Source of the DNA: Betaproteobacteria bacterium
Lineage (GTDB): Bacteria; Bacillota; UBA5301; DYFA01
Direction of reading: 5' to 3'
DNA: 64,000 nucleotides
Assembly: GCA_050260635.1 (NCBI GenBank)
Contig: JBLNCL010000030.1
Location: 72,590 to 136,589 of the forward strand
Below, piece by piece: positions 16,199-62,442 of this stretch. The notes beneath the pieces were generated by a model. It was given only the letters and a program-made list of their open reading frames with translations. It ran no database searches and was not told where the DNA came from. A program made the translations under genes and the position numbers. Positions within the stretch are counted from its first letter, which is position 1; each line of letters opens with the position of its first letter.

Positions 16199-16222
16199 GA
16201 AAAAACCTAACCAACGCGACTT

Positions 16223-20258: not shown

Positions 20259-20430
20259 GGCCAGGCCGTCGTCCCGCTGAAAAAGTCCTCGCACAATCTC
20301 GTCGTCTACGGTAACATGGAACTGGGCCATCGTTTCACTCCTCCCTGGTGTTGGCTGCAACTTCACCATTTTGGAGGAGTGGTGGCCCTTTCCTTCTGGG
20401 CCTGTCCCTTTTTACACCACTATACGGACG
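20259..20430. mobile_element. Truncated IS256-family left end (solo ~170-bp fragment including terminal IR and first ~35 codons of transposase)
   Basis: Near-identical (a few mismatches) to 28039-28221, including the transposase N-terminus MAQFHVTVDDEIVRGLFQRDDGLA. Similarity stops abruptly on both sides. Confidence 0.75.
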
Positions 20431-20591
20431 CTACTGGGTTCGGCCTGAGATCACGCACAGATTCGCCGACTCGGCTACTCTGATGGGCCGTGGTTTCCCC
20501 GAGAAGGAATAAGATGGCAGTCACCAGAAAGTAACAGGAGGCGTGAAACCGAATCAGTTCCGTCTCAAACTTGGGGGGTACACGGCTACCT

Positions 20592-21953: not shown

Positions 21954-22002
21954 CAAGGAGGAGAGGACCACGGCTCTCAGCAAGATAAGCATTCGCCCAG
22001 GT

Positions 22003-23505: not shown

Positions 23506-23544
23506 CCGGCATCTGCTTGTAGGGACATCCGAGGAGGGATTCAC

Positions 23545-25776: not shown

Positions 25777-25778
25777 CG

Positions 25779-26798: not shown

Positions 26799-26899
26799 CA
26801 CTCTGGGGTCAGAGGCCGTCGGCTTGGACGCAGATGGCTGCTGGGCCTCCCATGTTTGGTTCGCAGGACGGCAACTCCTTGAGAGAAGGGGGCACAGCA

Positions 26900-28221: not shown

Positions 28222-28259
28222 GCAAACTCCTCTCCCGACACTAGAGCTACGACCCTTGG

Positions 28260-29252: not shown

Positions 29253-29258
29253 AACACA

Positions 29259-29305
29259 AAGCCTCCTTAGTCTCTTAAGAGAAGCTAAGGAGGCTAATCG
29301 AGCGT
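29259..29305. promoter_or_regulatory. Long perfect palindrome overlapping the integrase Shine-Dalgarno (AGCCTCCTTAG-TCTCTTAAGAGA-AG-CTAAGGAGGCT)
   Basis: 11-bp outer stem and 6-bp inner palindrome directly upstream of the int GTG. The outer arm contains the GGAGG RBS. Confidence 0.5.
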
Positions 29306-45286: not shown

Positions 45287-47107
45287 TTAGCCGGAGGCGG
45301 CCGCGTTTCCTGCCGCGGCTTTGGGCTTATTCATCCCCGCTTCGCAAGAGGCGAAGCTGCTGCCCAGCCGGGTCAGAGCAGCTCCGGAAACCAACAGGAC
45401 GGACAAGACCACCATTCCGGCCAATGCGCCCGGCCAGGCGGCCGCCAGCGTCGCCTCTGCCCATCGCCCCGAGCTGGCGGGCAAAATCCGCCAGGCCTGT
45501 AGGAAGAGCGCTGCTCCGTGGGCCAGCAAATCCCCCAGGAGCAGCCCAAGCCCTGCCAGCCTGGCGCTTTCTGCCTTTCGCCGGGCCATCCCCCCGCCCA
45601 GGAGCATGGTGAGGGCTGACGGCAGCGGAAGGAGCGCCCCTAGGGTCACCGGCCAGACTGGGCGGGCGAGGAGGGCCGACAAGGTGCCCAGGCCGACGCC
45701 GGAGACGAAAAAGCCCACCGGAAGCCCTCCCGAACCAGCCGCCAGAGCGATCCGTCCCACCACTCCCGTCCCCGGCTGCGGCAGCCAGCCTGGCCCGCCC
45801 GCCAGGGTCGCCGCCGCCATGGCGGCTCCGCCCAACCCCGCCAAACAAGAGACCAGCTTTACCGGGTAAAGCCCCCACTCCACCTCCAGTAGAAGGTTGA
45901 CCCGCCGGCATTGCAGGTAGTCAGCGGCAAACAGAGCGGCCGCCGACCCCAGGGCCCCCGCCGTCAAGAGTGGCGCCGGCGGCCCACTGGCAATGAGCGC
46001 CGGGGCCGCCACAGCCAATGCCGGGAAGCCAAGCGACGCCAACGGAAGGCTTCCGAGTTCGGCGGCGACTGCCATTCCCAGCGCTGCTACCAACGCCCCA
46101 GCCCCCAGAAGAAGCATCAACCGAATTCCCGGGGCCGCTCCGACCTCGTTCAGCCGCCAGAGTGCGAGTGCTCCAAGCAGCATGGCCACAGAAGCCGAAA
46201 GGGCCCTGCGCCACCAAGCCGGCCAGCCGCCAATCAACGAGCGGCCTGCGCGCCAGGCTCGCCAGGCCGCCGAGAGCTTTCGCCCCAAGAAGAGGACCGC
46301 CGCCACTGCCCCCGTTCCCAAGGCAATCAGGGGAGCGTAGCTCGCCTGAAGTTCCAGCCCGGTGGCTTGGCTGGCCGCCCGGAGCGCTGGGGCGACCACT
46401 TTGGCGGTTTCGAACTCCAATATCCCAGGGAGGAGGAGCGCCCCCACCGCCAAGCTTCCGGCCGCCAGCGTCGTCGCCTTCTGCCATCCGGCGAGCATTC
46501 CGAGCCCCAGCAAGCCCGGTGCCACCGCCAAACCGAGCAGGCCGGCCCACCCGCCGCCGTGGCGCGTCGCCACCACGACGCCCGGCCACCACCCGGCTGC
46601 CACCCCGACCCGGGTTACAGCCGCTAAGACTCCCCCCGCCAGCAAAATTGACCATCGGCGCCCACCAGACGCCAGCCCGATGACTTGTGCCAGGGCTGCG
46701 GCATCAGGGAAGGTGAAGTCGGGTTTGGCGGCCAAACGTTCCACTGCCGCCCCGAGCGATACACCACTCAGAGCGGCCAGGGTCAGGCGCCAGCCGGTGG
46801 CAGGCAGCCACGCCGGACCCGACCAAGCCTCGAGCAGCGGCGAAAACCAAACCATCACCAGAGCCGCCGCCGCCCCCCCTGAAGCCGCGGCCTGGAGTAG
46901 GGACCCCAGGATGCAACCGGGTCTGCCGGCTATCCAATACAAGACTCCCCAACAAATCAAGAGCACTGCTACGCTGCCGGCCAACGGCCCGGCCAACTGG
47001 CCGGCCAGAGTTCCGGTTGCCCCGATGATCCAGGCGAGACAGGTTCCGGTCGCCAACCAAGTCCCGTAAAGCCACCACGGAAAGGTCATTGGCACCACCG
47101 CCCGCAT
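45287..47107 (-). CDS. Large polytopic integral membrane protein (uncharacterised; Ala/Gly/Leu-rich, >12 predicted TM segments)
   Basis: 606-aa ORF composed almost entirely of hydrophobic helices; family not assignable from sequence alone. Confidence 0.5.
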   Translation of the reverse strand: MRAVVPMTFPWWLYGTWLATGTCLAWIIGATGTLAGQLAGPLAGSVAVLLICWGVLYWIAGRPGCILGSLLQAAASGGAAAALVMVWFSPLLEAWSGPAWLPATGWRLTLAALSGVSLGAAVERLAAKPDFTFPDAAALAQVIGLASGGRRWSILLAGGVLAAVTRVGVAAGWWPGVVVATRHGGGWAGLLGLAVAPGLLGLGMLAGWQKATTLAAGSLAVGALLLPGILEFETAKVVAPALRAASQATGLELQASYAPLIALGTGAVAAVLFLGRKLSAAWRAWRAGRSLIGGWPAWWRRALSASVAMLLGALALWRLNEVGAAPGIRLMLLLGAGALVAALGMAVAAELGSLPLASLGFPALAVAAPALIASGPPAPLLTAGALGSAAALFAADYLQCRRVNLLLEVEWGLYPVKLVSCLAGLGGAAMAAATLAGGPGWLPQPGTGVVGRIALAAGSGGLPVGFFVSGVGLGTLSALLARPVWPVTLGALLPLPSALTMLLGGGMARRKAESARLAGLGLLLGDLLAHGAALFLQAWRILPASSGRWAEATLAAAWPGALAGMVVLSVLLVSGAALTRLGSSFASCEAGMNKPKAAAGNAAASG

Positions 47108-47311
47108 TCTTGTCCCTGCTCCCGCAACACGCTAGACTAATCTATGTCCGGGCTCCGGTTGCCATTCCTGAGCGAAAGGCCTGCTTTATTGAACCACCGA
47201 GGAGGGGCGCGATAGTGAGCGAGGCTGTCCCGAAGGGCGTTCGGGGCAGCCTTCTTCTGTGCGCTGCGACGAGCGACCGCTGAGCCCGTGACCTGGTGCA
47301 AGGCGCCATGG

Positions 47312-47703
47312 CTAGATGCGGAAGCCGTTGTGAACCTCGTAGACCCAGTTGGCCCCGTGATTGTTGTCCCATTGATCTCCGTTGGTGAAGCAGAAGTTGA
47401 TCGCCGTGTCGGTGTCCACCGTTACGTGGGCACCCCAGCTCCCGTCGGGCAACGGTTCCATGGGGATGTTCTGGACGTTGGTCCAATTCCCGTATCCGTA
47501 ACCGAGATGCATCGCAATCGGCTTGCCCTGGTTTGCCAGATCGCCCCGGTACTTGACCGTGATCGTCTCCCCCGCTGTCACCGGCACCGGATCTACCTCG
47601 ATCTTCTGGGTTCCGCCCAATTCCGGTTCGCCAAACTCGGTCCGGGCCTCCTCAGCCGCCGCTTTCGCGTCTTGTTTCCTGCGCCGCAGGAACTCCAAGA
47701 CCA
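47312..47703 (-). CDS. Small cytoplasmic carbohydrate-binding-module-like protein (CBM25/26-like starch/glucan-binding signature)
   Basis: ...GKPIAMHLGYGYGNWTNVQNIPMEPLPDGSWGAHVTVDTDTAINFCFTNGDQWDNNHGANWVYEV resembles CBM25/26 (W..V.M...G.W.......F.F.NG..WDNN.G.N). Start taken at the second ATG after an AGGAGGG RBS. Confidence 0.4.
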
Positions 47704-47930
47704 TGCCCATCCCTCCTTTCCCGGCATGACCTATCGCAAGATAGTCTCCCTCCGGGCGCCCCGTGCGATTAGGAGCAGTTTTCGCCCCGCCTGCCACGCC
47801 CTGCCTATACCAAGTCTAGGATGAACGGCCAGAATGTGGTACAGTATTTAGTTACAGACCATGCCCACACTCGCAAGACGAATTGGGTTCTGCGAAGGGT
47901 GACATAGATTCTAAGAATGTGGAGGTAACC

Positions 47931-50900
47931 GTGACCGATCTCATCCGCTCGCCTCAAGTGGAAGACCTCTTTCAGGTCGCCCGCGATCTGGCCGCCCGGC
48001 AGCAGGTGCGCAAAGCCCGCGGCTTCACCTTCCCGCTCCAACGGCAACTCCGGCAGGACGTCCGCCGCCTGAGCGCCGCCGCGCAGGCCTTCCAGGCGGC
48101 GGCCCAGGCGGGAGAGCAGATTCCGCCCGCGGCGGAGTGGCTAGTGGACAACGCCTACATGGTGGCTGAGCAGGCCCAGTTCACCCTGCGCCACTTCCCT
48201 GCGGGCTATTACCGGCGTCTCCCGGTGGTCTCCCAAGGCCCCGGGCAGGGCCTTCCTCGCATCCACTCGATCGTGCTGAACCTGCTCGGCCAGACGGGCG
48301 GGCGATGCAATCCCGAGGTGCTCGTTGGCTACCTTCGGGCCTACCAGGAAATCCGGCCGCTTACCACGGGCGAACTGTGGGCCGTCCCGCTCTTCTTGCG
48401 CGTCGCGATCGTCAACAAGCTTGGTCAAGTCTTCGAAGAGGTCTCCCGCTACGACGAGGAGCGGCGGCGGGCTGACACCTGGCTGGCGCGCATCTCCGCT
48501 TACCTGGCGGAAGGGGGCGAGGTGGCCCGAGACGCCATAGCTGGCGCCGAGCAACACGTCAATCTGCATAACCCGGCGGTCCTGATTCATGTGGCGCGCC
48601 GCCTCCGGGAATACGAATCAACCCCCACCCTCGCCCTTCGCTGGCTCGAGACCTGGGCCGTAGCCCATGACCTGTCCCTCCCCCGCCTGATCGAGGATGA
48701 CCACTCCCGGCAGGCTCGTTACCGGGTGACAGTTGAACATCTCTTCACCAGCCTGCGGGAGGTTGCTCACCTGGGCTGGGAGGAACACTTCGAGGACTTG
48801 AGCCTGGTGGAGCAGATCCTGCGCCGCGATCCGGCCAAGGTCTATCCCGAGATGGACTTCGAAAGCCGGGACCAGCTCCGCCACCTGGTCGAGACTCTGG
48901 CGCGGAAGTGGGACAAGTCGGAAATCGCCGTGGCCGAACAAGCCTTGGCTTTGGCGCAGAGCCAGGCCATGACCAACGGGCCCAACCCGGACCTCCTGAC
49001 GGTCGAACAGCGCCAAGCCGAGCATGTCGGCTATTATCTCCTGCCCCCCGGGCGGGCCAAGCTCTGCCGCGCCCTCGGCGGGAAACTGCGCCCGTGGTGT
49101 GAGCCGCGCGACTTCCTCACCAGCCATCCCAACCTGGTCTACTTCAGCGCCCTGGCTGTTCTGATCGGGTTCTTCCTGTACGCGGCAGTGCGGGCGCTCG
49201 CTTTGCTCCGAGTCTTCTCCCCCCGCCAGTTGGCCATCCTGGGGATAGTGCTTCTGGTTCCGGCCGGAGAGTGGGCCACGCGGACCTGGCACTGGGTGCT
49301 GATGAAGCTGGTCCCCCCTCGCCGCCTGCTGAAGCTTGAGTTCCGTCACGGGGTCCCGCCGGAGCACCGGACAATGGTCGTCGTCCCGGCGCTCCTCGCC
49401 AGCGTCGGCGAAGCGGAGGAACTCGTCCGCCGCTTGGAAGTACACCGTCTGGCCAATCCGGGCGAGAACCTCCACTTCGCCCTGCTCACCGACCTGCCCG
49501 ACGCTTCCCAGGAAGAGCTGCCGGGCGACGCCGACATCATGGAGGCGGCCAGAGAGCGAATCGAGGAGTTGAACGCCCGTTACCCGGCCGCCAAGGGTAC
49601 CTCCTTCTACCTCCTACACCGGCGGCGCCAGTGGAACCCCGCTGAAGGGGTCTGGATGGGGTGGGAGCGCAAGCGGGGCAAACTCATCGAGTTCAACGCC
49701 CTGCTCTGCGGTGACCAAACCACCAGCTTCAGCCTGATCGTCGGCGATACCTCCATTTTCCGGACGGTTCGCTACGTCATCACCCTGGACGCCGATACCC
49801 AATTGCCCCGGGATTCGGCCGTCAAGCTGATCGGGGCCATGGCCCATCCCCTCAACGCGCCCATCCTCTCTCCCGATCGACGGCGGGTCATACGCGGCCA
49901 CGGACTCTTGCAGCCCCGCATCTCCGTCAGCCACGCCAGCACCCAGCGGTCCTGGTTCGCTCTGCTCTGCGGGGGTAAGACAGGCTTTGACATCTACACC
50001 TGCGCCGTCTCCGACCCGTATCAGGAACTGTTTCAGTTCGGCATCTACACCGGCAAGGGCATTTACGACGTGCGCATCTTTGACCAGCTCCTGCGGGATC
50101 GGATTCCCGACAACACAATCTTAAGCCACGATCTCCTCGAAGGAGGATTCCTCCGCGCCGGCCTGGTGACCGATGTCGAACTCCTCGACGATTACCCGGC
50201 GAGCTTTCTCAGCAGCCTCTCCCGCTCCCACCGCTGGGCCCGGGGCGACCTTCAGCTCCTGCCCTGGCTGGCCCCCAGCGTCCCCAACCGGGCCGGGATC
50301 AAACTGCCGGCCTCTCTGCCCGCCATCACCCGTTGGCAGATGATCGACAACTGGCGCCGCATCCTGCTCAGCCCTGCTCTCTTTGGTCTGATCTTGCTGG
50401 GGTTGGTGGTGCTGCCCGGCCGCCGAATCATCCTGGACTGGCCGCTCCTCGTGGTAGCCGGTCTCTACCTCCTCCGTCAGGGGTTCAACTGGGTGGCCGG
50501 CGTCCAGCAGGGGCTATCCCCGGTCCGTCTGCTGGCGCCCTCCCTTCTGGCCGCCCTTTTCCTTCCCTACCAGGCGCTGACGATGCTCGACGCCCTGGTG
50601 CGCACCCCCTACCGGATGTTCGTCTCCCGCCGCCGCTTGCTCGAGTGGGTGACCTCGGCCCACGCCGGCCGGCGGGCGCCCAAGACGCTCCGGGGAATCT
50701 GGCGGCAGATGGCCGCCGGTCAACTCCTGGTCCTGGCCGGATCCCTGGCGGCGACCCTGGCCGCTCCCGCCAACTGGCCTTTGCTCTGGTCCCTGGCCGC
50801 CGCCTGGCTGACCGCCCCCGTCTGGGTCTTCCTACTGAACCAGCCCGTCCGGCCGCCAAAACCCCGGCTCACCCAGGAACAGACCCGCTACCTGCGGGAA

Positions 50901-53900
50901 GTCGCCCGTCGGACCTGGCACTTCTTTACCACAGTAGTCGGGCCGGAGGATAACTGGCTGCCCCCTGACAACCTCCAGCTGGACCCGCCCAATGGCGTGG
51001 CCCATCGAACCTCGCCGACCAACATCGGGCTCCTCTTGGCCTCGACGGTGGCTGCCCGGGACTTCGGCTACCTGACCACGTCCGAGCTTCTCGAACGGCT
51101 CGAGCACACGCTGGATACCCTGGAGAAGCTCCCCCGCTGGAACGGCCACTTCTACAACTGGTACGACACGCTTTCCCTGGAGCCTTTGGAGCCCCGCTAC
51201 GTCTCGACCGTGGACAGCGGAAATCTGGTGGCCTACCTGATCGCCGTCAAGGAGTCGGTCCGGGAGTGGTTGGAGCGGCCGGTGGCGGACGGTCAGTCCG
51301 TGCGCGGGCTTTTGGACACGTGGCATTGGGAGTTCGCCCGCGCCAACGGGGGCAGGCGCAAGGACCCGCCGGCTCCCCTCCGGGAGTTCGCCGAACGCCA
51401 TCTGAAGGAGCTGGAAGCAGGAACGCCCGGGTCCTTGACCCGCTGGTACTACACCCTGACCATGCTCGAAGAGAAGCCTGCTCAACTCCCGGTCTTCTCC
51501 GCCAGCGTCCAGGCGGCACGGCGGGAGCTGGAAGGGCTCTTCCCCTGGCTTGACCTCCTGGCGGCCCTCAACCATCGGAGTGACTTGGAGCCCGGTTCGC
51601 CCGTCCAGATCACCCTGTCCCTTGGCCGTCTCCTGGAGCGGCTGGACTCCCTTAGAACCCCGCAGGAAGCCGTGACCTGCGCCGAGGAACTGGTGGAATT
51701 GGTAGGCTGGCAGGCCGGCGCCCAATCGGACGAGGCGGAGGCGCTCGAGGCCGAGCTGCGCCGGCAGCTGCGCCAGTCGCGGGAGGCGGTGCTGGCCCGG
51801 CAAGAGCGGGGAGCAAAGCTCCTTGCCCGGTTGGAGGCGCTCGTCCAAGAGCACGACTTCCGGCCCCTGTACGACCCCAAACGGCGCCTGTTCGCCATCG
51901 GGTACAACCTCTCCGCCGGCCGGCTGGACCCATCCTACTACGATCTCATGGCCTCCGAGGCACGGCAGGCCAGCTTCGTGGCGATCGCTCTGGGGCAGGT
52001 CCCGACCCGTCACTGGTCTCAACTGGCCCGGACCTTGACCTTGGTCCGCTGGACGCCGACGCTGGTCTCCTGGAGCGGGACGATGTTCGAGTATTTCCTC
52101 CCCCTGCTCCTGCTCCCCAATTACCCGAATACCCTTTGGGACCAGACTTATCGCATGGTCGTCCGCCGGCAGATCACCTACGCCCGCGGGCGGGGGCTCC
52201 CCTGGGGCATCTCCGAGTCGGGCTTCTATGCCCATGACTTCCAACTCAGCTACCAGTATCAGGCCTTCGGAGTGCCGGGCCTCGGGCTCAAACCGGGGCT
52301 CGGCGCCGATCAGGTCATCACCCCCTACGCCACCTTTCTGGGCGCCATGCTGGAGCCGGTGAAGGCGGTGCGGAACCTGCGCCACCTAGAGGAGTTGGGG
52401 GGGCTGGGCGAGTACGGCTTCTATGAAGCCCTGGACTTCACCCCCACCCGGGTGCCGCAGGGGGCCAGATGCGCAGTAGTGAAGAGCCACATGGCCCACC
52501 ACCAGGGTATGACACTCCTCTCCCTGGCCAACGTCCTCTTGGGGCCGCGGCTGCAGCGGCGATTCATGTCCGACCCCCGGATGGAGGCCACCGAGCCGCT
52601 GCTGCGGGAACGGACGCCCGCCCGGGCGCTGATCCTCTCGCAGGGGCCACCCCCGGTGCCGCAGCGCTCCACCCTGCTCAGCGAGCATGCCGACCTCCGC
52701 TACTTCGCCGGGGCCGACAGCGTCCTCCCCGAAGCCCGGATCCTCTCCAACGGCCGGTACTTCGTCATGCTGAGCAACAGCGGGGGCGGGTTCAGCCAGT
52801 GGGGCGACCTCGCCGTGACCCGCTGGCGGGAAGACCCGATCCGGGACGCTTCGGGAACCTTCCTCTACCTCCGGGACCTTTCGCACAACGAACTCTGGTC
52901 GCCGACCCACCACCCCTGTCGGCGCAACGCCGAGGACTGCTCGATGCGTTCCTTCCTGGAAAAGGTGGTCTACGAGCGGACCGTCGGCGACCTTCACACC
53001 CAAATGGAGGTCTGCGTCTCGCCGGAAGTCGACGCCGAGGTGCGCAAGGTGACGCTGACCAACCGGGGCGAGGAGGTCCACGTCCTGGAGGCCACGAGCT
53101 ACCTCGAGCCGGTCCTCTCGCCGCTGGCCGACGACGAAGCCCACCCAGCCTTCAACCGCCTCTTCATCGAAACCGAGGCGGTCCCTGAAGCCCCAGCGCT
53201 CCTCGCCCACCGGCGCCCGCGCCGCCCGGAGGCGCCCCAGCCCTGGGTGGTCCACGCCATCATGGTGGAGGGGCCAACGGTGGGGCCGCTGGAGTACGAG
53301 ACGGACCGCGCCCGGTTTATGGGGCGGGGAAGGGCGACCGGCCTTCCCCAGGCCATCGAGACCAACCAGCGCCTCTCGGGCACCACGGGAACGGTGCTCG
53401 ATCCGATCCTCTGCCTCCGCCGGCGCTTCGAGGTCCCCCCCGGCAAAGCCGTCCGGCTGTGGCTCGTGACGGGGGCCGCCGACTCGCGGGAAGAGGCCTT
53501 GCGGATCGTCCGCCACTTCCAGCAGCCGTTCCAATTGGCCCGCGCCTTCGAGCTGGCCTGGATCCGGAGCCGGATCGAGCTTCGCCACCTGAACCTGACG
53601 CCCCGCCAGGCCAACCTCTTCCAGTGGATGGCCTCGCAGCTCTTCTACTTCAACCACTACCGGCATCCCCGCGCCACGGCCTTGCTGCAGAACACCAAAG
53701 GCCAGTCAGGGCTTTGGTCTTACGGCATCTCCGGCGACCTGCCAATCGTCCTGGTTCGGCTGGCCCGCCTGGAAGGACTTCATCTGGTGGCGACGCTTCT
53801 GCGTGCCCACGAATACTGGCGCCTCAAGGGCCTCCGGGTGGACCTGGTGATCTTAAACGACTCGGAGGCCAGCTATGGGCAACCACTGCAGGAGGAACTC

Positions 53901-56609
53901 CGCCGTCTGCTGGAGAGAAGCGCCGACCGGGACCTGCTAGACCGACCGGGCGGGGTCTTTCTCCGCTCGGGCCTGCTCATGCCTAAGGCGGATCAGATCC
54001 TGCTCGAATCCGTGGCCCGCATCTACCTGCGAGCCGAGGCGGGCGACATCATCTCCCAGTTGCAGGTCCAACCCGAGATTCTGGCGCAAACCGCCTTCGC
54101 CCCCGAGCTGGAGCTCCCTGCCTCCAACCGGCCCGCGCCGCGCTGTCCCAGCCGGCGAGGCGAACCAGTGACCGCCGAGGCCCCGGCCAACCTCTGCTTC
54201 TTCAACGGATGGGGCGGCTTCACCCCGTCCGGGCGGGCCTATGTCATCCACCTCGACGACTCGGAACTCCCGCCGGCCCCCTGGATCAACGTCCTGGCCA
54301 ACCCCGGCTTCGGCTGCCTGGTTTCGGAGGCCGGCGGCGGCTACACCTGGTCGGAGAACAGCCGGGAGTACAAGCTTACGCCCTGGACGAACGACCCAGT
54401 TCTCGACCCGCCAGGGGAGATCTGCTACCTCCGGGACGAGGAGGACGGTTCCGTTTGGTCTCTGACGCCCATGCCAATCCGGGAGGAGGGACCCTACGAG
54501 GTCCGCCACGGCCAGGGCTACACCATGTTCGTCCACCAAAGCCACGGCCTGACGCAGACGGGCCTCCTCTTCGTCCCGCGCCGCGACCCGCTCAAGGTTC
54601 TCCGCCTCTCCCTGCGCAACGAGGAGGACCGGCCACGCCAGGTCTCGGTCACCTATTACGCCGAGTGGGTGCTGGGGGTGTCGCGCCAGCAGACGGCGCC
54701 CTTCCTCGTCACGGAATGGGACTCCGCCACCGGCACCCTGCTCGCCCGCAACGCCTTCCAGGACTGCTTTGCCGGGCGCCACGCCTTCCTCCACCTGTCC
54801 TCCGACGACCCGGGCGCCAGCCTGAGTTTCACCGGCGACCGGGCCGAATTCGTCGGGCGGAACCGGAGCGTGGCCGACCCCGCCGGGCTTGAACGCCCAG
54901 CCCTCTCCGGCCACGTCGGCGCCCTTTACGACCCCTGCGGGGCAGTGCAGATCAAGGTGAGCGTTCCGCCGCGCGCTGAGCGCACCGTCCTCGTGCTCCT
55001 GGGAGCCGCCCCGTCCCCGTGCGAGGTCCAGCGGCTGGTCAAGGAATATCGCCCAGTGGAGCGGGTGGAGAGAGCCTTCCAGGAGGTCCGCACCGCCTGG
55101 GATGAGCTGCTCAGCCAGGTGCAGGTCTCGACCCCCGACCCGTCCTTCGACCTGCTCGTCAATCGCTGGCTGCTCTATCAGACGATCAGTTGCCGGCTGT
55201 GGACCCGCTCTGCCTACTACCAGTCCGGCGGGGCGTACGGCTTCCGGGACCAGCTTCAGGACGCCCTGGCCCTCCTCCATGCGGCGCCGGAACTGGCCCG
55301 GCAGCAGATTCTCCGTCACGCCGCCCACCAGTTCAAGGAGGGCGACGTCCAGCACTGGTGGCATGAGGAGACCCGCTGCGGCGTCCGGACCAGAATCTCC
55401 GACGACTACCTCTGGTTACCCTACGCTGCCTGCCGCTACGTCACCCACACCGGCGACGAAACCCTCTGGGACGAGCTCGTCCCCTTCCTCGACGGAGAAC
55501 CCCTGGCCGACGGAGTGGAGGAGCGCTACGGGCCGACCATCCAGTCCGACGAGGAAGGTTCGGTCTACGAGCACTGCCTCCGAGCCGTCGACCGGGCCCT
55601 CCGCCTGCTCGGCCCCCACGGCCTGCCGCTGATCGGCACCGGCGACTGGAACGACGGCCTCAACCGGGTCGGCCGGGAAGGACGGGGGGAGAGCGTCTGG
55701 CTGGCCTGGTTCCTCTACACCGTGCTCCGGGCCTTCGCCCCGGTCTGCGCCGCCCGCGGGGAAACCGATCGGGCCGCCGCCTACGAGCAGGCCGCCGCCC
55801 GCCTCGCTGAGGCCGTGGAGCAGCACGCTTGGGACGGCCAGTGGTACCGGCGGGCCTACAACGACCTGGGGCAGCCGCTGGGGTCGCTCCAGAACGACGA
55901 GTGCCAGATCGACTGCATCGCCCAGGCCTGGGCTGCGATCTCCGAGGGGGCCTCCCGCCAGCGGGCCCGGACGGCCATGGATTCGCTCTACCACCGGCTG
56001 GTGGACCGGGAGGAGGGGCTCATCCTCCTGCTTACCCCGCCCTTCGCCGCAACCGAGCCGAGTCCAGGCTACATCCAGGCCTATCCCCGCGGCGTCCGGG
56101 AGAACGGCGGGCAGTACACGCACGGCGCCGTCTGGGCGGTCATCGCCTGGGCCAAGCTGGGCGAAGGAAACCGGGCCTACGAGCTCTTCCGCCTGCTGAA
56201 CCCGATCAACCACGCCCGGACCAACAGCGAGGCCCTGCGCTATCGCGTCGAGCCCTACGTCATGACCGCCGACGTCTACTCCGTCCCGCCCCACGCCGGC
56301 CGGGGCGGGTGGAGCTGGTACACCGGGGCCGCCGGCTGGATGTACCAGGCCGCCCTTGAGTGGATCCTAGGCCTTCAGCGGCGCGGTTCCCGGCTCTACC
56401 TCCGGCCCTGCATTCCGGAAAACTGGCGGAAGTTCGCCGTGAGCTATCGCTATGGCCATACCCGCTACGAGATTCTGGTCGATAACCCCGGCGGCCGCCA
56501 GACCGGCGCCTCCGCCCTGATCCTCGACGGGGCGCCCCTCGATCCCGCCGACCCGTCCATCCCCCTCGTGGACGACGGGCAGGTCCACCGCGCGGTGTTG
56601 ACCTTGTGA
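47931..56609 (+). CDS. Cyclic beta-1,2-glucan synthase (Cgs/NdvB/ChvB-type; GT84 + GH94 domains), ~2890 aa
   Basis: N-terminal cytoplasmic region plus TM helices, then the GT84 glycosyltransferase core (...YTGKGIYDVRIFD...SHDLLEGGFLRAGLVTDVELLDDYPASFLSSLSRSHRWARGDLQ...), a long alpha-helical linker and a C-terminal GH94 cellobiose-phosphorylase-like domain. Start taken at the GTG at ~47931 after a GGAGGT RBS; the track ORF begins at 47883. Confidence 0.8.
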   Translation: MTDLIRSPQVEDLFQVARDLAARQQVRKARGFTFPLQRQLRQDVRRLSAAAQAFQAAAQAGEQIPPAAEWLVDNAYMVAEQAQFTLRHFPAGYYRRLPVVSQGPGQGLPRIHSIVLNLLGQTGGRCNPEVLVGYLRAYQEIRPLTTGELWAVPLFLRVAIVNKLGQVFEEVSRYDEERRRADTWLARISAYLAEGGEVARDAIAGAEQHVNLHNPAVLIHVARRLREYESTPTLALRWLETWAVAHDLSLPRLIEDDHSRQARYRVTVEHLFTSLREVAHLGWEEHFEDLSLVEQILRRDPAKVYPEMDFESRDQLRHLVETLARKWDKSEIAVAEQALALAQSQAMTNGPNPDLLTVEQRQAEHVGYYLLPPGRAKLCRALGGKLRPWCEPRDFLTSHPNLVYFSALAVLIGFFLYAAVRALALLRVFSPRQLAILGIVLLVPAGEWATRTWHWVLMKLVPPRRLLKLEFRHGVPPEHRTMVVVPALLASVGEAEELVRRLEVHRLANPGENLHFALLTDLPDASQEELPGDADIMEAARERIEELNARYPAAKGTSFYLLHRRRQWNPAEGVWMGWERKRGKLIEFNALLCGDQTTSFSLIVGDTSIFRTVRYVITLDADTQLPRDSAVKLIGAMAHPLNAPILSPDRRRVIRGHGLLQPRISVSHASTQRSWFALLCGGKTGFDIYTCAVSDPYQELFQFGIYTGKGIYDVRIFDQLLRDRIPDNTILSHDLLEGGFLRAGLVTDVELLDDYPASFLSSLSRSHRWARGDLQLLPWLAPSVPNRAGIKLPASLPAITRWQMIDNWRRILLSPALFGLILLGLVVLPGRRIILDWPLLVVAGLYLLRQGFNWVAGVQQGLSPVRLLAPSLLAALFLPYQALTMLDALVRTPYRMFVSRRRLLEWVTSAHAGRRAPKTLRGIWRQMAAGQLLVLAGSLAATLAAPANWPLLWSLAAAWLTAPVWVFLLNQPVRPPKPRLTQEQTRYLREVARRTWHFFTTVVGPEDNWLPPDNLQLDPPNGVAHRTSPTNIGLLLASTVAARDFGYLTTSELLERLEHTLDTLEKLPRWNGHFYNWYDTLSLEPLEPRYVSTVDSGNLVAYLIAVKESVREWLERPVADGQSVRGLLDTWHWEFARANGGRRKDPPAPLREFAERHLKELEAGTPGSLTRWYYTLTMLEEKPAQLPVFSASVQAARRELEGLFPWLDLLAALNHRSDLEPGSPVQITLSLGRLLERLDSLRTPQEAVTCAEELVELVGWQAGAQSDEAEALEAELRRQLRQSREAVLARQERGAKLLARLEALVQEHDFRPLYDPKRRLFAIGYNLSAGRLDPSYYDLMASEARQASFVAIALGQVPTRHWSQLARTLTLVRWTPTLVSWSGTMFEYFLPLLLLPNYPNTLWDQTYRMVVRRQITYARGRGLPWGISESGFYAHDFQLSYQYQAFGVPGLGLKPGLGADQVITPYATFLGAMLEPVKAVRNLRHLEELGGLGEYGFYEALDFTPTRVPQGARCAVVKSHMAHHQGMTLLSLANVLLGPRLQRRFMSDPRMEATEPLLRERTPARALILSQGPPPVPQRSTLLSEHADLRYFAGADSVLPEARILSNGRYFVMLSNSGGGFSQWGDLAVTRWREDPIRDASGTFLYLRDLSHNELWSPTHHPCRRNAEDCSMRSFLEKVVYERTVGDLHTQMEVCVSPEVDAEVRKVTLTNRGEEVHVLEATSYLEPVLSPLADDEAHPAFNRLFIETEAVPEAPALLAHRRPRRPEAPQPWVVHAIMVEGPTVGPLEYETDRARFMGRGRATGLPQAIETNQRLSGTTGTVLDPILCLRRRFEVPPGKAVRLWLVTGAADSREEALRIVRHFQQPFQLARAFELAWIRSRIELRHLNLTPRQANLFQWMASQLFYFNHYRHPRATALLQNTKGQSGLWSYGISGDLPIVLVRLARLEGLHLVATLLRAHEYWRLKGLRVDLVILNDSEASYGQPLQEELRRLLERSADRDLLDRPGGVFLRSGLLMPKADQILLESVARIYLRAEAGDIISQLQVQPEILAQTAFAPELELPASNRPAPRCPSRRGEPVTAEAPANLCFFNGWGGFTPSGRAYVIHLDDSELPPAPWINVLANPGFGCLVSEAGGGYTWSENSREYKLTPWTNDPVLDPPGEICYLRDEEDGSVWSLTPMPIREEGPYEVRHGQGYTMFVHQSHGLTQTGLLFVPRRDPLKVLRLSLRNEEDRPRQVSVTYYAEWVLGVSRQQTAPFLVTEWDSATGTLLARNAFQDCFAGRHAFLHLSSDDPGASLSFTGDRAEFVGRNRSVADPAGLERPALSGHVGALYDPCGAVQIKVSVPPRAERTVLVLLGAAPSPCEVQRLVKEYRPVERVERAFQEVRTAWDELLSQVQVSTPDPSFDLLVNRWLLYQTISCRLWTRSAYYQSGGAYGFRDQLQDALALLHAAPELARQQILRHAAHQFKEGDVQHWWHEETRCGVRTRISDDYLWLPYAACRYVTHTGDETLWDELVPFLDGEPLADGVEERYGPTIQSDEEGSVYEHCLRAVDRALRLLGPHGLPLIGTGDWNDGLNRVGREGRGESVWLAWFLYTVLRAFAPVCAARGETDRAAAYEQAAARLAEAVEQHAWDGQWYRRAYNDLGQPLGSLQNDECQIDCIAQAWAAISEGASRQRARTAMDSLYHRLVDREEGLILLLTPPFAATEPSPGYIQAYPRGVRENGGQYTHGAVWAVIAWAKLGEGNRAYELFRLLNPINHARTNSEALRYRVEPYVMTADVYSVPPHAGRGGWSWYTGAAGWMYQAALEWILGLQRRGSRLYLRPCIPENWRKFAVSYRYGHTRYEILVDNPGGRQTGASALILDGAPLDPADPSIPLVDDGQVHRAVLTL

Positions 56610-56626
56610 CAGGGATATGCTATACT
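56598..56626 (+). promoter_or_regulatory. Sigma-A-type promoter for tRNA-Glu (TTGACC-17-TATACT)
   Basis: TTGACCttgtgacagggatatgcTATACT ends 13 nt before the tRNA 5' end. The -35 region overlaps the glucan synthase stop codon. Confidence 0.55.
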
Positions 56627-56639
56627 CTCTCTTGCTTGT

Positions 56640-56715
<76 letters not shown>

Positions 56716-56725: not shown

Positions 56726-56762
56726 GCAGCGGGTTTGGCTTGGAAGGCCAAACCCGCTTTTG
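56726..56762. terminator. Rho-independent terminator hairpin (bidirectional candidate) between tRNA-Glu and hsdR
   Basis: GCGGGTTTGGC-ttggaa-GGCCAAACCCGC followed by TTTTG on the plus strand; A-run on the other side. Confidence 0.6.
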
Positions 56763-56783
56763 TAAACCCCCGAACAGGTGTTG

Positions 56784-59700
56784 TCACCAAGCTGACTCGG
56801 CGCATTCCCAGCCGAAAAGCTCCGCCTGCTCCAAAACCGTTTGCGTAGCCTTCTCCTGCTTGTCGGGCGGATAGCCGTGCCGTCGGAGGATCCGTTTCAC
56901 GAGCACCCGGAGATTGGCGCGGACGTTCTCGCGCACCGTCCAGTCCGTGGTCACGTTGGTGCGCACGGCGGCCACAAGCTCGCGGGCAATGGCGCGCAGC
57001 GTCTCGTCGCCGAGAATCTTGACCGCGCTGTCGTTGGTCTCCAGTGCGTCATAGAACGCCAGTTCCTCCCCTGTAAGACCGAGCCGTTCACCCCGCCGGT
57101 CCGCCTCACGCATTTCCCGGGCGAGGTCGATAAGCGCTTCGAGCACCTGGGCGGCCTCGATGGTGCGGTTCTGGTAGCGTCGAATCGCCTGCTCCAACAG
57201 CTCGGCAAAGGAACGCGCCTGAACGAGGTTCTTCGTCCGGCGGCTGCGGATCTCCCCGGACAGCAGCTTGCGCAACAGCTCCACCGCCAAGTTCTTCTGC
57301 GGCATCCCGCGCACCTCAGCCAGGAACTCTTCAGAAAGAATGGAGAGGTCCGGTTTCTTCAGGCCCGCCGCGGCAAAGATGTCCACCACGCCCTCGGGAG
57401 CGACGGCGCGGGAGACGATCTGCCGTATGGCGTGATCCAGCTCCTCCTCACTCTTCTCTTCGCCCGGGGCGCGCTTGACCAGAGCTGCGCGCACTGCCTG
57501 GAAAAAGGCCACGTCGTCGCGGATGGCCAGCGCTTTCTCGTGTGGCACGGCCAAGGCGAAGGCCTGGGACAGGTCGCGCACGGCTTCCAGAAACCGGTCC
57601 CTGCCGCGTTCGCGTTCTTGAGCCAAGATGTGTTCCTGTGCCGACGGGAGAAGCGAAAGCCGCTCCCCGGGTGAACCCGTAACCCACTTTGACCAATCAA
57701 AGCCGTGGAAGAGGTCGCAGCAGATCTCGTACTTCTCCAGCATCACTGCCACGGCCTCTTCTTGGTCGATGGCGGTTCGGCCGCGGCCGCCGCTCTCGGT
57801 GTAGGTGGCCAGCGCCGCCTTGAGCTCATGGGCCAAGCCCAGATAGTCCACCACAAGCCCGCCCGGTTTGTCACGGAAGACTCTGTTCACGCGAGCGATG
57901 GCCTGCATGAGCCCGTGGCCGCGCATCGGCTTGTCCAGGTAGAGCGTGTGCAGGCTCGGACAATCGAAACCCGTGAGCCACATGTCACGGACGATGACCA
58001 TGCGGAAGGGGTCATTGGGATCGCGGAAGCGATTGGCCAGGAACTCGCGCCGCTCTTTGTTGCGGGCGTGCTGCGCCACGCGCGGGCCTTCAGCGGTGCT
58101 GCCCGTGATCACCACTTTGAGTACCCCTTGGTCGTCCTCCGGGTGGTACCAGTCCGGCCGGAGCCGCACGATCTCGTCGTGCAGATCCATGCAAATGCGC
58201 CGGCTCATGCAGACCACCATGGCCTTGCCGTCCAACGTCTCGAGCCGGCGCTCGAAGTGCTCTACGATGTCCCGGGCCAAGAGTTTCAAACGCTTTTCGG
58301 CGCCTACGATGGCCTCCAGTTGCGCCCACTTCGACTTGAGCCTCTCTTTGCGCTCGACCTCCTCGCCTTCGGTCACCTCTTCGAAGTCGGGGTCGATGCG
58401 CGGCCGCTCAGATTCGTCCAGCGCCAGCTTCGCCAAGCGGCTCTCATAGTAGATCGGGACGGTCGCGCAATCGTCCACCGCGCGCTGGATGTCGTAGATC
58501 GAGATGTAGTCCCCGAAGACCGCTCGCGTGTTGGCGTCGGTCGTTTCGATGGGCGTGCCGGTAAAACCGATGAAGGAGGCGTTGGGCAGGGCGTCACGCA
58601 GGTGTCGGGCGAAGCCGTCGATGAAGTCGTACTGGCTGCGGTGGGCCTCGTCGGCAATCACGACGATGTTGCGGCGCAGAGAAAGAGTCGGATGGCGATC
58701 GCCCTTGTCCTCGGGCAAGAACTTCTGGATGGTGGTGAAGACCACCCCACCCGCCTCCACCGAGAGCTTCCGGCGCAGGTCGGCCCGGCTTTCGGCCTGT
58801 GCCGGTGGCTGGCGCAGAAGGTCCTGGCAGCGGGAGAACGTGCCGAACAGCTGATCGTCGAGATCGTTCCGGTCGGTGAGAACCACGACCGTCGGGTTGC
58901 CTAGCGCCGGCTCGCGGATGATCCGGCCCGCATAGAAGACCATAGTCAAGCTCTTGCCCGAACCCTGGGTATGCCAGACCACGCCGATGCGGCGGTCCCC
59001 CGGTTGACCACCATGCTGCTTTCCGGCCTCGTAGCGCCCCCGCTCCTCGGCAGCCAACTCGGCGGCTCCCAGCGCTGCCGCCCGCAACGTCTCGGCCACC
59101 GCCACCCGCACCGCGTGGAACTGGTGGTAGCCGGCCATCTTCTTGACCAGCCACCCGCCTCCCAAGTCCTCGAAGACGATGAAGTAGCGGAGAAGGTCGA
59201 GGAAGCGACGCTTCTCGCAGACACCCTTCAACAGCACCTCGAGCTGGGTTACGCCGATGTCTTCGACCTGTTCACCGGAGATGGTGCGCCAGGGCTTGAA
59301 CCATTCCCGCCCGGCCGTGAGCGTGCCCACCCGGGCTTCCATCCCATCTGAGATTACAAGGAGTTCGTTGAAAGCGAAGAGACTCGGCAGCTCGGCCCGG
59401 TAGGTCTCAAGCTGCCCAAGGGCTGACCAGATCGTGGCTTTCTCCTCGGCCGCGTTCTTGAACTCGATGAGGACCAGCGGCAGGCCGTTCACGAACAGCA
59501 CGACATCCAGGCGACGCAAGTGCTTGTTCTCTCTGACCCAGAACTGGTTGACTGCCAGCCAGTCGTTGTTCTCTGGTTCGTCAAAGTCGACCACCCTCGC
59601 CTGCGCCCCGGCAAGGGATCCGTCCGGCCGGCGGTATTCCACAGTGACCCCGTCCACGAGCATGCGGTGGAAAGCCCGGTTACGGGCCTCCAGGCTTGCT

Positions 59701-59939
59701 CCTTCAGGGTCGGTGACACGGCGGAAGGCCTCGGCCAGCGCCTCTGCGGGCAGGTCCGGGTTCAGCCGGGCGAGGGCATCGCGCAGGCGGCGCTCCAATA
59801 CCACCTGGCCATAGTCCCGCCGCTCGGCACCCGGTGCATCCGGCGCAATGTCCGGGCCGTGCTTGACCGCCCAGCCGAGGGATTCAAGCCAGTCCAGGGC
59901 AGCAGACTCCACCGTAGATTCGCTCAGCGACCTTGACAT
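56784..59939 (-). CDS. hsdR: Type I restriction enzyme R subunit (HsdR)
   Basis: N-terminal nuclease region, SF2 motor motifs ([10 protein letters not shown] Walker A, DEAH-like [10 protein letters not shown], helicase C) and C-terminal helical domain; 1051 aa. Confidence 0.9.
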
Positions 59940-60131
59940 TTGCGCACTCTCCTGATATCCTCATAGTCGTAGGCTGGTCACTGCGTAGCGGGGGCTGGCC
60001 TCTTCTATTTCGGTAGGACCACGAGCCCGAATCCCTCGATTTCGCCAGCCTTGCTCCGCCGGAACTTTCGCTCCACGATCCGCCAGTCTGCCGTAAATGG
60101 GACGACTTCAGCAGAGTTGGGGCGCATGGCT

Positions 60132-61052
60132 CTATTTTGGTCTTGTTGAGTTCGCCTGCACGCTTCCCTTTTGCGGAGCTTTATCCAACTCGTGTTGCGG
60201 TTCGTACATCCAAAAGTTTATGGGGTTTCTGGGATCGGGAGTCCAGAGCCCACGCTTTTCTATCAGACTCACGCCGAGTCTGAGAGTCTTGCATAATCCA
60301 TCGAACTTGCAGAGAACTTCGAAGCGTTCGAGAGAGCTGCGAGATGGGCTAACCTCGTTCTGCTCGCCTTCGAACAAGCTCTGTTGATTCGCCCTTTGCC
60401 CCAGCCATTTTTGATACTCGACAAAACTGTCTCGCGAGAAAACGGCGAGCCCAGCGAACAGGTCAGCCAACTGCGCTAGCGGATGTTCGTGTGACAAGAC
60501 GGGCCGGACTTCCTCCAGCGCGAACTCTTGCCGCAGCCTGCGTCGAAATCCCCCTTCAGTGAACAGTGAATGCTCAGTCTCAAGCTCCACACTAGCGCTG
60601 CTCAGGCAATCCTGCACCGTGTCCCAATTCATGGCCGTCTGTTCATCTGGATGCAATCGCCATCTTGAGCCGTCCGGCCAGCGAACGCGAAGCACATTAC
60701 GGAACAGGTGATAGTGCATCCGTTGAAGGTTTGCTATGTCGTCTCTCTTACGAATCTTGTGACGGCTATCTTCGATGTCCCAAATCAGTACGTCCACGCG
60801 AATCTGCTTGGCGCATGCCTTGTCAACGGCAAACTTGCACATCTTTTCTGCCGCAAACCGTTCCTTGGCACCTCGCAGTTCCTTCCACTTAAACTCGCTC
60901 AATCCAGACTCCTGGAGGATGCTTCGAAGGTTGGCTTCGAGCTCATCGATAAAATCAACAGGTGCGGTGACAAGCCCAAGGCTCCGAAAGCGCCCAACGT
61001 TCCAATTCGACTCGTCGCTAAACCCAACATGAGTCACTCCACCGTCGCTCAT
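60132..61052 (-). CDS. DUF3800-like protein embedded in type I R-M operon (ATG overlaps hsdS stop as ATGA)
   Basis: N-terminal ...HVGFSDESNW... (the 'DES' motif characteristic of DUF3800). Start at MSDGGVTHV after a GGAGGAACGGGGG RBS. Lower GC than hsdR. Confidence 0.45.
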   Translation of the reverse strand: MSDGGVTHVGFSDESNWNVGRFRSLGLVTAPVDFIDELEANLRSILQESGLSEFKWKELRGAKERFAAEKMCKFAVDKACAKQIRVDVLIWDIEDSRHKIRKRDDIANLQRMHYHLFRNVLRVRWPDGSRWRLHPDEQTAMNWDTVQDCLSSASVELETEHSLFTEGGFRRRLRQEFALEEVRPVLSHEHPLAQLADLFAGLAVFSRDSFVEYQKWLGQRANQQSLFEGEQNEVSPSRSSLERFEVLCKFDGLCKTLRLGVSLIEKRGLWTPDPRNPINFWMYEPQHELDKAPQKGSVQANSTRPK

Positions 61053-62407
61053 AGCCCCCGTTCCTCCAAAAACTTCTCCGCATCTTTCACCCTTGTCTCG
61101 CCAGAGACGAGCTTGGGCAGCAGCGTATCGCGGGAGGCAGCAAGGGTACGGGATTCGGTCCGTAGAGCTAGCAGTTGCTTGACAAGCGGCGAGATTAGGC
61201 AGTCCGCTGCGGTCAGTGCAGGCGCGCCCGGAACCACGACCTTTGCATCTGTTAGGTGATGGCGTTGGATGTGGCCCATAGTAGTTGCTTTGTCCGCAGC
61301 GATGCTCCGGAATCCTAGCAAATGCTCGTGGATCCAAAAGTAGTAGAACCACTTTGGATAGTTTCGCGACGTCACCTTGAATAAGTGTTGATTCAGAGCG
61401 CCTGTTCCTCCCGCCCACAGAACACATTCGAGGGAACCTGACCAGGAGAAAAGCACATCTCCATCGGTCACAACATAGTCCACCGGCACCTCCGTGTTGC
61501 ACCGATCAGCCCCCTCGGTATCTCCTTTCCGAAGCTGGGCAATCTTAATGATTGGCAAAGTCGGACCGTTTCCAGGGGGGTATTTCTGAAGAGCCAGCCC
61601 ATTCAGAAAATCGGCGACCTCGTTCAGCGATTTCACCTCCCACCCTTCCGGAATCTCCCCCAGCTCCGACTCAACTAGGCGGTCTGGGAACAGGTCGTAA
61701 AGATCGGATGGCAGGCCCACCAAGCACTCACCGCGGCGCCAGCGACCCTCCATCTTGGCGCGCACGGGTTCGTAGTCGACGAACCACGACTTGAACAGCG
61801 CCCGCGCCATAGCCTCCAACGTCTCGTTCATTCGGCGATTCAGTTCGATCTTGGCATCCAGCGTCCCGAGGATGTGAGCGATGGCCCGCTGCTCAGGCAA
61901 CGAAGGAACCGGAAATGCGATTCTGGTTACAAAGTCCCATTTCGCACGTGGCATCTTCGTACCTTCGGAGCCGCGGGTGGCCGCTTCGATGAACTCAGGT
62001 GATGCCATCAGATAGTGAAGGTAACCTGCATCCACAGACTCTTTCGGTCGTACAACCCAGATGTCTGTTGAACATACGCCGTCAAAGGGTGCGCGTATAA
62101 CCTTGCGGAAGTACGGCCTCAGCTTTCCGAAAAGAATGTCCCCACGGCGGAACCGCAACTTTACGCTGGAAACGTCTTCAGACTGGCCGCAGCCAACAAG
62201 TGATAGAGTGCCTTCACCGATGTGCTCAAGGCCGATATACGGAGCGCCAGCCACCGAGCCAGGCAGCACGGTATCGTATACCAGCTCGGCACATTCTCCG
62301 AACGTTCTAGATACCCAGTCACCGGCCATACTGAAGTTCCTCCAATGGCTTGCAAGACATTTCATCCAACCGCATGGCGCTCGACCGTTGGAGCATCGCG
62401 ACTGCAT
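61049..62407 (-). CDS. hsdS: Type I restriction-modification specificity subunit (HsdS), two target-recognition domains
   Basis: Duplicated TRD architecture with conserved spacer repeats (...LPEQRAIAHILGTLDAKIELNRRMNETLEAMARALFKSWF... and ...LVKQLLALRTESRTLAASRDTLLPKLVSGE). Confidence 0.8.
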   Translation of the reverse strand: MQSRCSNGRAPCGWMKCLASHWRNFSMAGDWVSRTFGECAELVYDTVLPGSVAGAPYIGLEHIGEGTLSLVGCGQSEDVSSVKLRFRRGDILFGKLRPYFRKVIRAPFDGVCSTDIWVVRPKESVDAGYLHYLMASPEFIEAATRGSEGTKMPRAKWDFVTRIAFPVPSLPEQRAIAHILGTLDAKIELNRRMNETLEAMARALFKSWFVDYEPVRAKMEGRWRRGECLVGLPSDLYDLFPDRLVESELGEIPEGWEVKSLNEVADFLNGLALQKYPPGNGPTLPIIKIAQLRKGDTEGADRCNTEVPVDYVVTDGDVLFSWSGSLECVLWAGGTGALNQHLFKVTSRNYPKWFYYFWIHEHLLGFRSIAADKATTMGHIQRHHLTDAKVVVPGAPALTAADCLISPLVKQLLALRTESRTLAASRDTLLPKLVSGETRVKDAEKFLEERGL

Positions 62408-62442
62408 TACGCGCGGTAATACAATAACAGCGAGCGGTTATC

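Follow-up and report, generated by a model that had tools for sequence, protein, structure and literature searches.

The window analysed here is a stretch of 64,000 nucleotides from contig JBLNCL010000030.1 (positions 72,590 to 136,589), deposited as a Betaproteobacteria bacterium and placed by GTDB in the Bacillota. It carries two divergently oriented genes separated by a 226-bp spacer, with the same spacing on an identical Logan contig. The larger gene, cgs, encodes a predicted synthase (Cgs) of cyclic beta-1,2-glucan, of the Cgs/ChvB/NdvB type, and the smaller encodes a protein of the CBM53/CBM25 type, named after families of carbohydrate-binding modules (CBMs). A first-pass annotation had placed both genes and their orientation as we find them, and had proposed that the small protein acts as a partner of the synthase. 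Our analysis leads to a different joint reading, to which we assign a probability of about 80%: the large protein is a true Cgs, the small protein lies outside the Cgs machinery and binds alpha-glucan, and the two genes are neighbours through an insertion of cgs at this site.

The large protein is a predicted full-length Cgs

The longest open reading frame of cgs begins at the first TTG (47883-56609, + strand; 2908 residues). The likely start is the GTG at position 47931, which has GGAGG in front of it and agrees with the gene call on the identical Logan contig (L004); Cgs residue numbers count from this codon. In a phmmer search of the PDB, the protein matches the Cgs of Agrobacterium tumefaciens (8RF0) with E=0 and 1968 bits (8RF9 also gives E=0), and residues 11-1138 and 1307-2870 align to residues 15-1131 and 1248-2807 of the 8RF0 chain. 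The resulting layout comprises an N-terminal domain, a GT84 glucosyltransferase with six transmembrane (TM) segments, a GH189 cyclase and a GH94 phosphorylase. The central cyclase domain had gone unmentioned in the first-pass annotation.

Pfam identifies the GH94 supersandwich (2.3e-159, in two stretches), the GH94 catalytic domain (7.6e-130) and PF10091 "Glycoamylase" (7.6e-18) in the protein. The transferase half was tested against solved structures because Pfam, which has no GT84 model, reported no GT84-type match; NCBIfam gave only a weak match to MdoH. These domain calls would also be expected of a GH94 fusion with a degradative or phosphorolytic role and an inactive glycosyltransferase half, a reading that we regard as highly improbable given that the first 1138 residues by themselves reach 657 bits against A. 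tumefaciens Cgs and that D521, the DxD motif, D734, the RW motif, the primer tyrosine and the TM helices are all intact. The end-to-end match to 8RF0 and a GT84 core that is intact at the sequence level thus bear out the annotation of a full-length homologue combining GT84 and GH94, and at this level exclude the refuting case named there, a GH94 fusion that lacks the GT84 core.

The GT84 core spans approximately residues 470-800 and contains D521, D620-A-D622, Y689, D734 (within SHDLLEG) and R768-W769. In the 8RF0 alignment, D521, D620/D622, D734, R768 and Y689 fall on D527, D624/D626, D739, R773 and Y694 of the A. tumefaciens enzyme. There, D527 and D624 bind uridine diphosphate (UDP), D624 forms a pair with D626, D739 is the catalytic base, R773 belongs to the RW motif and Y694 bears the covalently attached glucan primer (PMC10901819). 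The GT84 residues and Y689 are invariant in an alignment of 24 Cgs sequences, consisting of this protein and 23 homologues from other phyla. A crude Kyte-Doolittle analysis gives about six TM segments, of which TM1-2 (residues 400-443, two helices) precede the GT84 core and TM3-6 (808-836, 872-890, 927-945 and 951-969) follow it.

The GH189 domain matches the cyclase of Thermoanaerobacter italicus Cgs (TiCGS; PDB 8WY1) with 4.2e-154 and 517.6 bits in a direct phmmer comparison, and with 1.8e-151 in the PDB-wide search. E1343, E1387, E1429 and H1523/H1524 align with E1356, E1400, E1442 and H1536/H1537 of TiCGS, the residue offsets having been verified from the spacing in the 8WY1 chain. The corresponding roles in TiCGS are those of a nucleophile Glu, an acid/base Glu, a pKa-modulating Glu and a His-His pair (PMC10834661); by this alignment, E1429 is the predicted nucleophile and E1343 the predicted acid/base. 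The C-terminal module matches cellobiose and chitobiose phosphorylases with E-values of 1e-78 to 1e-103. Its D2440 (GFRDQ) and D2575 (GDWND) align with D2393 and D2528, the residues mutated in the inactive-phosphorylase construct of the Agrobacterium enzyme (PMC10901819).

The conserved residues are consistent with a mechanism, based on homology to the enzymes of A. tumefaciens and T. italicus, in which Cgs would glucosylate its own Tyr689 and the GT84 site would extend a beta-1,2 chain from UDP-glucose. The GH94 domain would set the chain length by phosphorolysis, and the GH189 domain would release the chain as a ring by transglycosylation, using E1429 and E1343. Enzymes of this class produce cyclic beta-1,2-glucans with a degree of polymerization of about 17-25.

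The gene is host-like in composition, as the first-pass annotation had stated. Its relative synonymous codon usage (RSCU) correlates with that of nine core genes at r=0.95, and the G+C content at third codon positions (GC3) is 0.86; island genes in the window give r=0.1-0.7.

Table 1 Features of the cgs locus, in window coordinates.
Feature	Position	Strand	Description and basis
Small CBM53/CBM25-type protein gene	47312-47704	-	130 residues; Pfam CBM53, PDB CBM25 match, AlphaFold2 (AF2) model
Conserved block of about 100 nt upstream of the small gene	47705-47806	-	Alignments; holds CCTAAT (47768-47773)
SigF-type -10-like motif AGGGAGACTA	47742-47751	-	Ends 37 nt before the small-gene start codon
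Candidate TG-extended -10 element TGGTACAGT for cgs	47837-47845	+	About 85 nt upstream of the start; putative, read from sequence
cgs, predicted synthase of cyclic beta-1,2-glucan	47931-56609	+	2892 residues; collinear with A. tumefaciens Cgs 8RF0 over the full length
Membrane/GT84 region	49128-50837	+	HMMER alignment to 8RF0, hydropathy
GH189 cyclization (transglycosylase) domain	50865-52622	+	Residues about 979-1564; phmmer against TiCGS 8WY1, PF10091
C-terminal GH94 glycoside-phosphorylase module	54210-56597	+	Residues about 2094-2889; Pfam PF06165 and PF17167 far above cutoffs
Sigma70-type tRNA-Glu promoter, TG-extended	56598-56626	+	TTGACC-17 nt-TATACT; read from sequence
tRNA-Glu(CUC)	56640-56715	+	ARAGORN and Rfam; 30 bp after the cgs stop
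Intrinsic-terminator hairpin	56729-56763	+	11-bp stem, 7-nt loop, T-run; read from sequence by eye

The small protein resembles starch-binding modules

Translation of the small gene starts at ATG 47704 (MVLEF...), with GGAGGG six nucleotides upstream, and all homologues use the same start. A version of 161 residues, extended to an upstream GTG, was dropped since the homologues do not use that start. The protein scores 34.5 bits against CBM53 (PF16760; gathering score 27.6, E 2.5e-8) and 20.4 bits against CBM25 (PF03423; E 6.5e-4), the latter under the gathering score of 27.3. The Pfam model of CBM26 gives no match. Of the earlier description as CBM25/26-like, the assignment to a starch-binding type of module therefore stands, with CBM53 above threshold, while CBM25 is sub-threshold and CBM26 unmatched. 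The maximum 19-residue Kyte-Doolittle hydropathy is 0.33, so the protein has neither a TM segment nor a signal peptide, the absence of the latter having been recognized from the outset.

An amphipathic, charged N-terminal segment is followed by a predicted beta-sandwich that carries H66, W74 and W112-D-N-N. These residues are invariant or nearly so in 60 family members, and in a match to the CBM25 structure 2C3V (E 0.0065) they coincide with H26, W34 and W74-D-N-N, the residues that reportedly form the alpha-glucan platform of BhCBM25. The AF2 model has a predicted local distance difference test score (pLDDT) of 75-91 in the beta-sandwich core. Foldseek returns 2C3V as its best match with a probability of 1.0 and a TM-score of 0.56 normalised to the target, the E-value being weak (5.7e-3).

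Stand-alone relatives often head glycogen-type gene clusters

At E<=1e-3, an exhaustive profile search yields 714 cluster representatives of the family. Among the best 149 representatives, 86 are stand-alone proteins of 93-240 residues; 83 of the 86 lack a TM-like N-terminus, and a short amphipathic N-terminal motif occurs in many of them. Among multidomain proteins, those closest to the family are GH13 alpha-amylases and GH15 glucoamylases that carry CBM53/25/20 repeats. Ten larger relatives that we scanned contain CBM53/CBM25 repeats, in most cases fused to an alpha-amylase (GH13) or glucoamylase (GH15) domain. Named members of the family are from Bacillota without exception. The groups to which these named carriers belong are mostly endospore-forming. 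A limited literature search turned up no published characterisation of bacterial stand-alone CBM53 proteins. In two related loci, a second CBM53 paralogue lies divergently and directly beside the first small CBM53 gene (L009:2664-3035 and L011:812-1297, both on the - strand).

To sample gene neighbourhoods, nine distant family members on long contigs were taken. Six lie in an alpha-glucan (glycogen-type) cluster (L093, L094, L096, L097, L098 and L101, with the small gene at position 8001 of each), in genomes of Thermincola potens, Desulfurispora thermophila, Zhaonella, Metallumcola, Natroniella and Bacillota LX-D. All six have a Glyco_transf_5/GT4 glycogen-synthase-like gene beside the small gene, which lies directly upstream of the synthase gene in five; the gap in LX-D is 2 nt. 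A sugar-1-phosphate nucleotidyltransferase-phosphohexomutase fusion also adjoins in Thermincola potens, Desulfurispora thermophila, Zhaonella and Metallumcola; none was called in the LX-D cluster. A GH57 branching enzyme with DUF4912 is nearby in every cluster, and its match to models of 1,4-alpha-glucan branching proteins (about 1e-98) is below cutoff. Further cluster genes encode GH15 in Metallumcola and Glucodextran_C in Natroniella. The remaining three members of the sample, from a Limnochordales metagenome-assembled genome (MAG), L099 and Halanaerocella, have no such glycogen-type genes adjacent.

The small protein is most likely a cytoplasmic binder of alpha-glucan (glycogen), because its predicted CBM53/CBM25 fold, its amylase and glucoamylase relatives and the glycogen-type clusters all point in this direction. 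It may serve the neighbouring synthase as a trans-acting binding module. The family offers a practical lead: it is common in anaerobic Bacillota, lacks signal peptides and repeatedly heads glycogen-type clusters.

Two of the clusters, in Zhaonella (L096:6417-7841) and LX-D (L101:6460-7890), have a membrane GT2 protein of 474-476 residues (Glyco_trans_2_3, of the processive-synthase type) encoded immediately upstream of the small gene. As a candidate relative of GT84 it was rejected, having only motif-level similarity (BLASTP E 0.006), weak matches to PgaC/CelA and no PDB match.

Promoters and other intergenic elements

The intergenic region holds different candidate elements for the two genes. 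On the cgs side, the -10 block is of the TGGTAnACT type; L001 and L006, which also carry cgs, keep it as TGGTATACT. A consensus scanner found no canonical two-hexamer sigma70 site and no intrinsic terminator in 47050-48000.

The motif upstream of the small gene resembles the -10 element of the Bacillus subtilis SigF consensus, whose -35 element is GYATA and whose -10 element is GGnnAnAHTR (Wang et al. 2006, cited in bioRxiv 10.1101/2023.12.01.569620). Counting matches to at least six of the seven specified positions that end 20-50 nt upstream of the start, we find a SigF-like -10 element in 11 of 15 family genes, with the L094 example in the region 7900-8000. Shuffled sequences yield 3.4 +/- 1.6, with 0 of 2000 shuffles reaching 11, and upstream regions of control open reading frames at the same loci have the element in 24%. 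The test is post hoc, and some of the 15 genes are related to each other. This pooled positional test of the -10 element is the only significant pooled result for SigF; gene by gene, combined -35/-10 matches to SigF/SigG are significant only for L094 (12/12) and L010 (11/12). Desulfurispora has a perfect GCATA-15-GGCCAGAATA, and the window clade matches the -35 consensus poorly. The pattern suggests, as a hypothesis only, that the CBM53 family is expressed in the forespore. Such a promoter, if real, would link the storage of alpha-glucan in anaerobic spore-formers to the forespore.

Other explanations for the conserved block upstream of the small gene fared less well. Rfam gives no riboswitch or leader RNA in it, at gathering scores or at E<=10, save a chance hit to isrK (E 8.6). 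The covariation term that RNAalifold returns for five sequences is unfavourable (+2.44), with a single compensatory pair, so a promoter is preferred over a leader RNA. A sigma54 promoter (TGGCAG...TGCT) was rejected by inspection, since its GG-GC spacing exceeds the required one by about 7 nt. A possible hairpin, GGUCAUGCC ... GGCAUGGUC (47696-47735, - strand), would place the ribosome-binding site of the small gene in the loop and its start codon in the 3' arm; it is kept in five related loci, with no covariation.

At the other end of cgs, the promoter of tRNA-Glu(CUC) overlaps the last cgs codons and the stop, with the -35 element TTGACC inside these last codons. The equivalent promoter in L007 reads TTTACA-17-TATACT, and a TG-extended promoter is present in both arrangements, with and without cgs. 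Transcripts of cgs probably read through the tRNA-Glu gene, because the first terminator hairpin downstream of cgs comes only after the tRNA.

Adjacency probably arose by insertion of cgs

The first-pass annotation had cast the small protein as a dedicated partner of Cgs, acting as primer carrier, chain-length sensor or regulator, and their shared divergent intergenic region would then allow the two genes to be co-regulated. The close divergent arrangement is indeed kept in four related cgs-bearing lineages (L001, L002/L003, L004/L005 and L006), and CBM folds can change specificity. However, Cgs has a primer tyrosine of its own (Y689) and a GH94 length-control domain, so that no external primer carrier is needed. 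Two family profiles, one narrow and one broad, were run on 80 diverse metagenomic cgs loci, and neither found a CBM53-like open reading frame at any of them; sequence upstream of cgs extends to 1 kb or more in 71 of these loci and to 5 kb or more in 40, and the known carriers were all recovered as positive controls. The apparent promoter types differ, with a putative TG-extended -10 element for cgs and a SigF-like one for the small gene. Together with the link of the CBM53 family to alpha-glucan enzymes, these observations make a partnership quite unlikely, even though the family adjoins processive-type membrane GT2 genes in Zhaonella and LX-D.

Comparison of related loci points to a different origin for the pair. 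Relatives were compared by gene content and synteny only, since the labels of related MAG records conflict (Betaproteobacteria, Chitinophagales, Aneurinibacillus, Firmicutes). Seven GTDB species loci have the small gene, and cgs is adjacent in just one of them (L006); in the other six, the small gene is flanked by the same tRNA-Glu and/or by murA-dnaE. The latter pair lies beside the small gene in L007, L009 and L011, which have no cgs there. The order small gene - cgs - tRNA-Glu(CUC) is found in the window, L001 and L006. In L007, L010 and L011, nothing separates the two outer genes: the tRNA gene sits 150-240 bp upstream of the small gene and keeps the same relative orientation, which makes tRNA-Glu(CUC) the predicted ancestral neighbour of that gene. 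L007 also keeps the conserved upstream block, and the small gene and this block would both predate cgs at the site.

We propose that a cgs segment of about 8.8 kb that included its own promoter entered between the small-gene upstream region and the tRNA-Glu(CUC) promoter in one narrow subclade, so that cgs was probably put between the small gene and its tRNA neighbour. The opposite polarity, with cgs ancestral beside the small gene and deleted independently in the lineages that lack it, would make the pair old whatever its function, and would fit the fully host-like codon usage of cgs and the junctions, which show no direct or inverted repeats of at least 8 nt at the putative insertion boundaries and no mobility gene. 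Yet cgs is absent from this position in all outgroup loci whose sequence extends upstream of the small gene (L007, L008, L010 and L011), among them the closest outgroup, L007, whose MurA is 85% identical to that of the window (89% in the cgs-bearing L001 and L006). We consider this alternative unlikely and prefer one insertion because it is simpler than several precise deletions. The absence of flanking repeats and the host-like codon usage suggest that the insertion is old. The divergent pair, though conserved in the four sampled cgs-bearing lineages, would thus have arisen by insertion and not as a functional module.

Several observations weigh against the joint reading of a true Cgs, an alpha-glucan binder and an insertion. 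The call of gain over loss is a parsimony argument drawn from a few MAG contigs with inconsistent taxonomic labels. Cgs is only 70-81% identical across L001, L002 and L006 and the adjacency is nevertheless conserved; selection for linkage inside the cgs-bearing clade is conceivable. In the window clade, the small gene is not beside glycogen genes at its locus, and the synthases of the glycogen-type clusters find their best NCBIfam match, glgA_Coryne, at 1e-47 to 1e-53, below the curated cutoff. The GT2 genes of Zhaonella and LX-D leave some room for a link between the family and membrane glucan synthases. On the side of Cgs, the 64-kb window contains no ABC exporter of the Cgt/ChvA type.

A more specific account of the small gene is tentative. 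In this account, stand-alone CBM53 proteins would form a Bacillota family that supplies a glycogen-binding module in trans to a GT5-like synthase that lacks a CBM, perhaps transcribed by SigF/SigG; the gene of the window clade would have become separated from its glycogen cluster and now lie beside an inserted cgs. We hold this to be possible but doubtful.

The rest of the window

The chromosome is syntenic with Firmicutes, as first annotated, and its Bacillota-type gene order includes pyk-accA-accD-pgpA-dnaE and ireB-murA, together with a surface layer homology (SLH) protein. Just downstream of the small gene, 45287-47107 (- strand) encodes an Ala/Gly/Leu-rich polytopic membrane protein of 606 residues with at least 12 hydrophobic segments and no match in Pfam or NCBIfam. 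The same protein follows the small gene in L001, L002, L006 and L007, and ireB(reoM)-murA comes next.

Directly after tRNA-Glu, a type I restriction-modification region (56784-64000) forms a second island at a tRNA gene, with hsdR (56784-59939), an hsdS-like open reading frame (61049-62407) and a Schlafen/AlbA_2-HATPase_c_4 protein (62443-63984). A low-GC DUF3800 open reading frame (60132-61502) is inserted among these genes. The other island (14515-29300; low GC, 50-56%) adjoins tRNA-Leu(CAA) and encodes a Dcm-type C5 methylase, HATPase_c_3, Z1-domain and DUF4420 (PD-(D/E)XK-like) proteins, a transposase of the Mutator family and a tyrosine integrase; this island probably represents a restriction or defence element that became integrated. 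Near polA (9316-14028, - strand), two genes of the cyclic-di-GMP signalling type, dCache-HD-GYP and 5TM-GGDEF-HD-GYP, flank an amidohydrolase gene.

Comparison with known systems

The protein described here shares its domain order, with an N-terminal domain, GT84 with six TM segments, cyclase and GH94, with the Cgs/ChvB/NdvB enzymes of A. tumefaciens (8RF0, 8RF9) and Brucella abortus, and belongs to the same length class (2892 residues against about 2830). Identity to A. tumefaciens Cgs is about 35-40% in the N-terminal half, and all catalytic residues and the primer tyrosine of that enzyme are conserved (PMC10901819). The hosts differ, being a Bacillota lineage here and alphaproteobacteria in the case of Agrobacterium and Brucella, and the window lacks the chvA/cgt-type exporter gene of those systems.

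The first-pass annotation had singled out the occurrence of Cgs in a Gram-positive-type genome. The Bacillota-type context is real, but it is not new, because the Cgs cyclase domain of T. italicus (Bacillota/Clostridia) has already been characterised and crystallised (PMC10834661; PDB 8WY1). Among solved structures, TiCGS comes nearest to the middle domain (517.6 bits, compared with 426.9 for Agrobacterium Cgs), and its E1356, E1400, E1442 and H1536/7 are all kept here, in a comparison that covers the isolated cyclase domain. Homologues of the GT84 region with 33-46% identity occur in Cyanobacteria, Planctomycetota, Acidobacteria, Chloroflexi, Verrucomicrobia, Actinobacteria and Proteobacteria, and more than 590 metagenomic loci match Cgs. 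A large protein collection yielded no full-length Cgs from Bacillota, all matches listed being at most 1720 residues long and many of them named "partial". The well-preserved Cgs from this high-GC, uncultured Bacillota clade joins a family that has been studied mainly in proteobacterial pathogens and symbionts, and speaks for a wide occurrence of cyclic beta-1,2-glucan synthesis beyond host-associated Gram-negative bacteria.

The modelled beta-sandwich fold of the small protein is shared with the CBM25 module of the Bacillus halodurans amylase (2C3V/2C3W). In amylases, glucoamylases and starch synthase III, CBM25/CBM53 modules are domains of larger proteins, whereas here the module is a free-standing, predicted cytoplasmic protein of 130 residues with a charged, amphipathic N-terminal extension. 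If the stand-alone proteins do act in trans on a glycogen synthase, they would represent a split-gene counterpart of the CBM53 repeats that are fused to the starch synthase III of plants.

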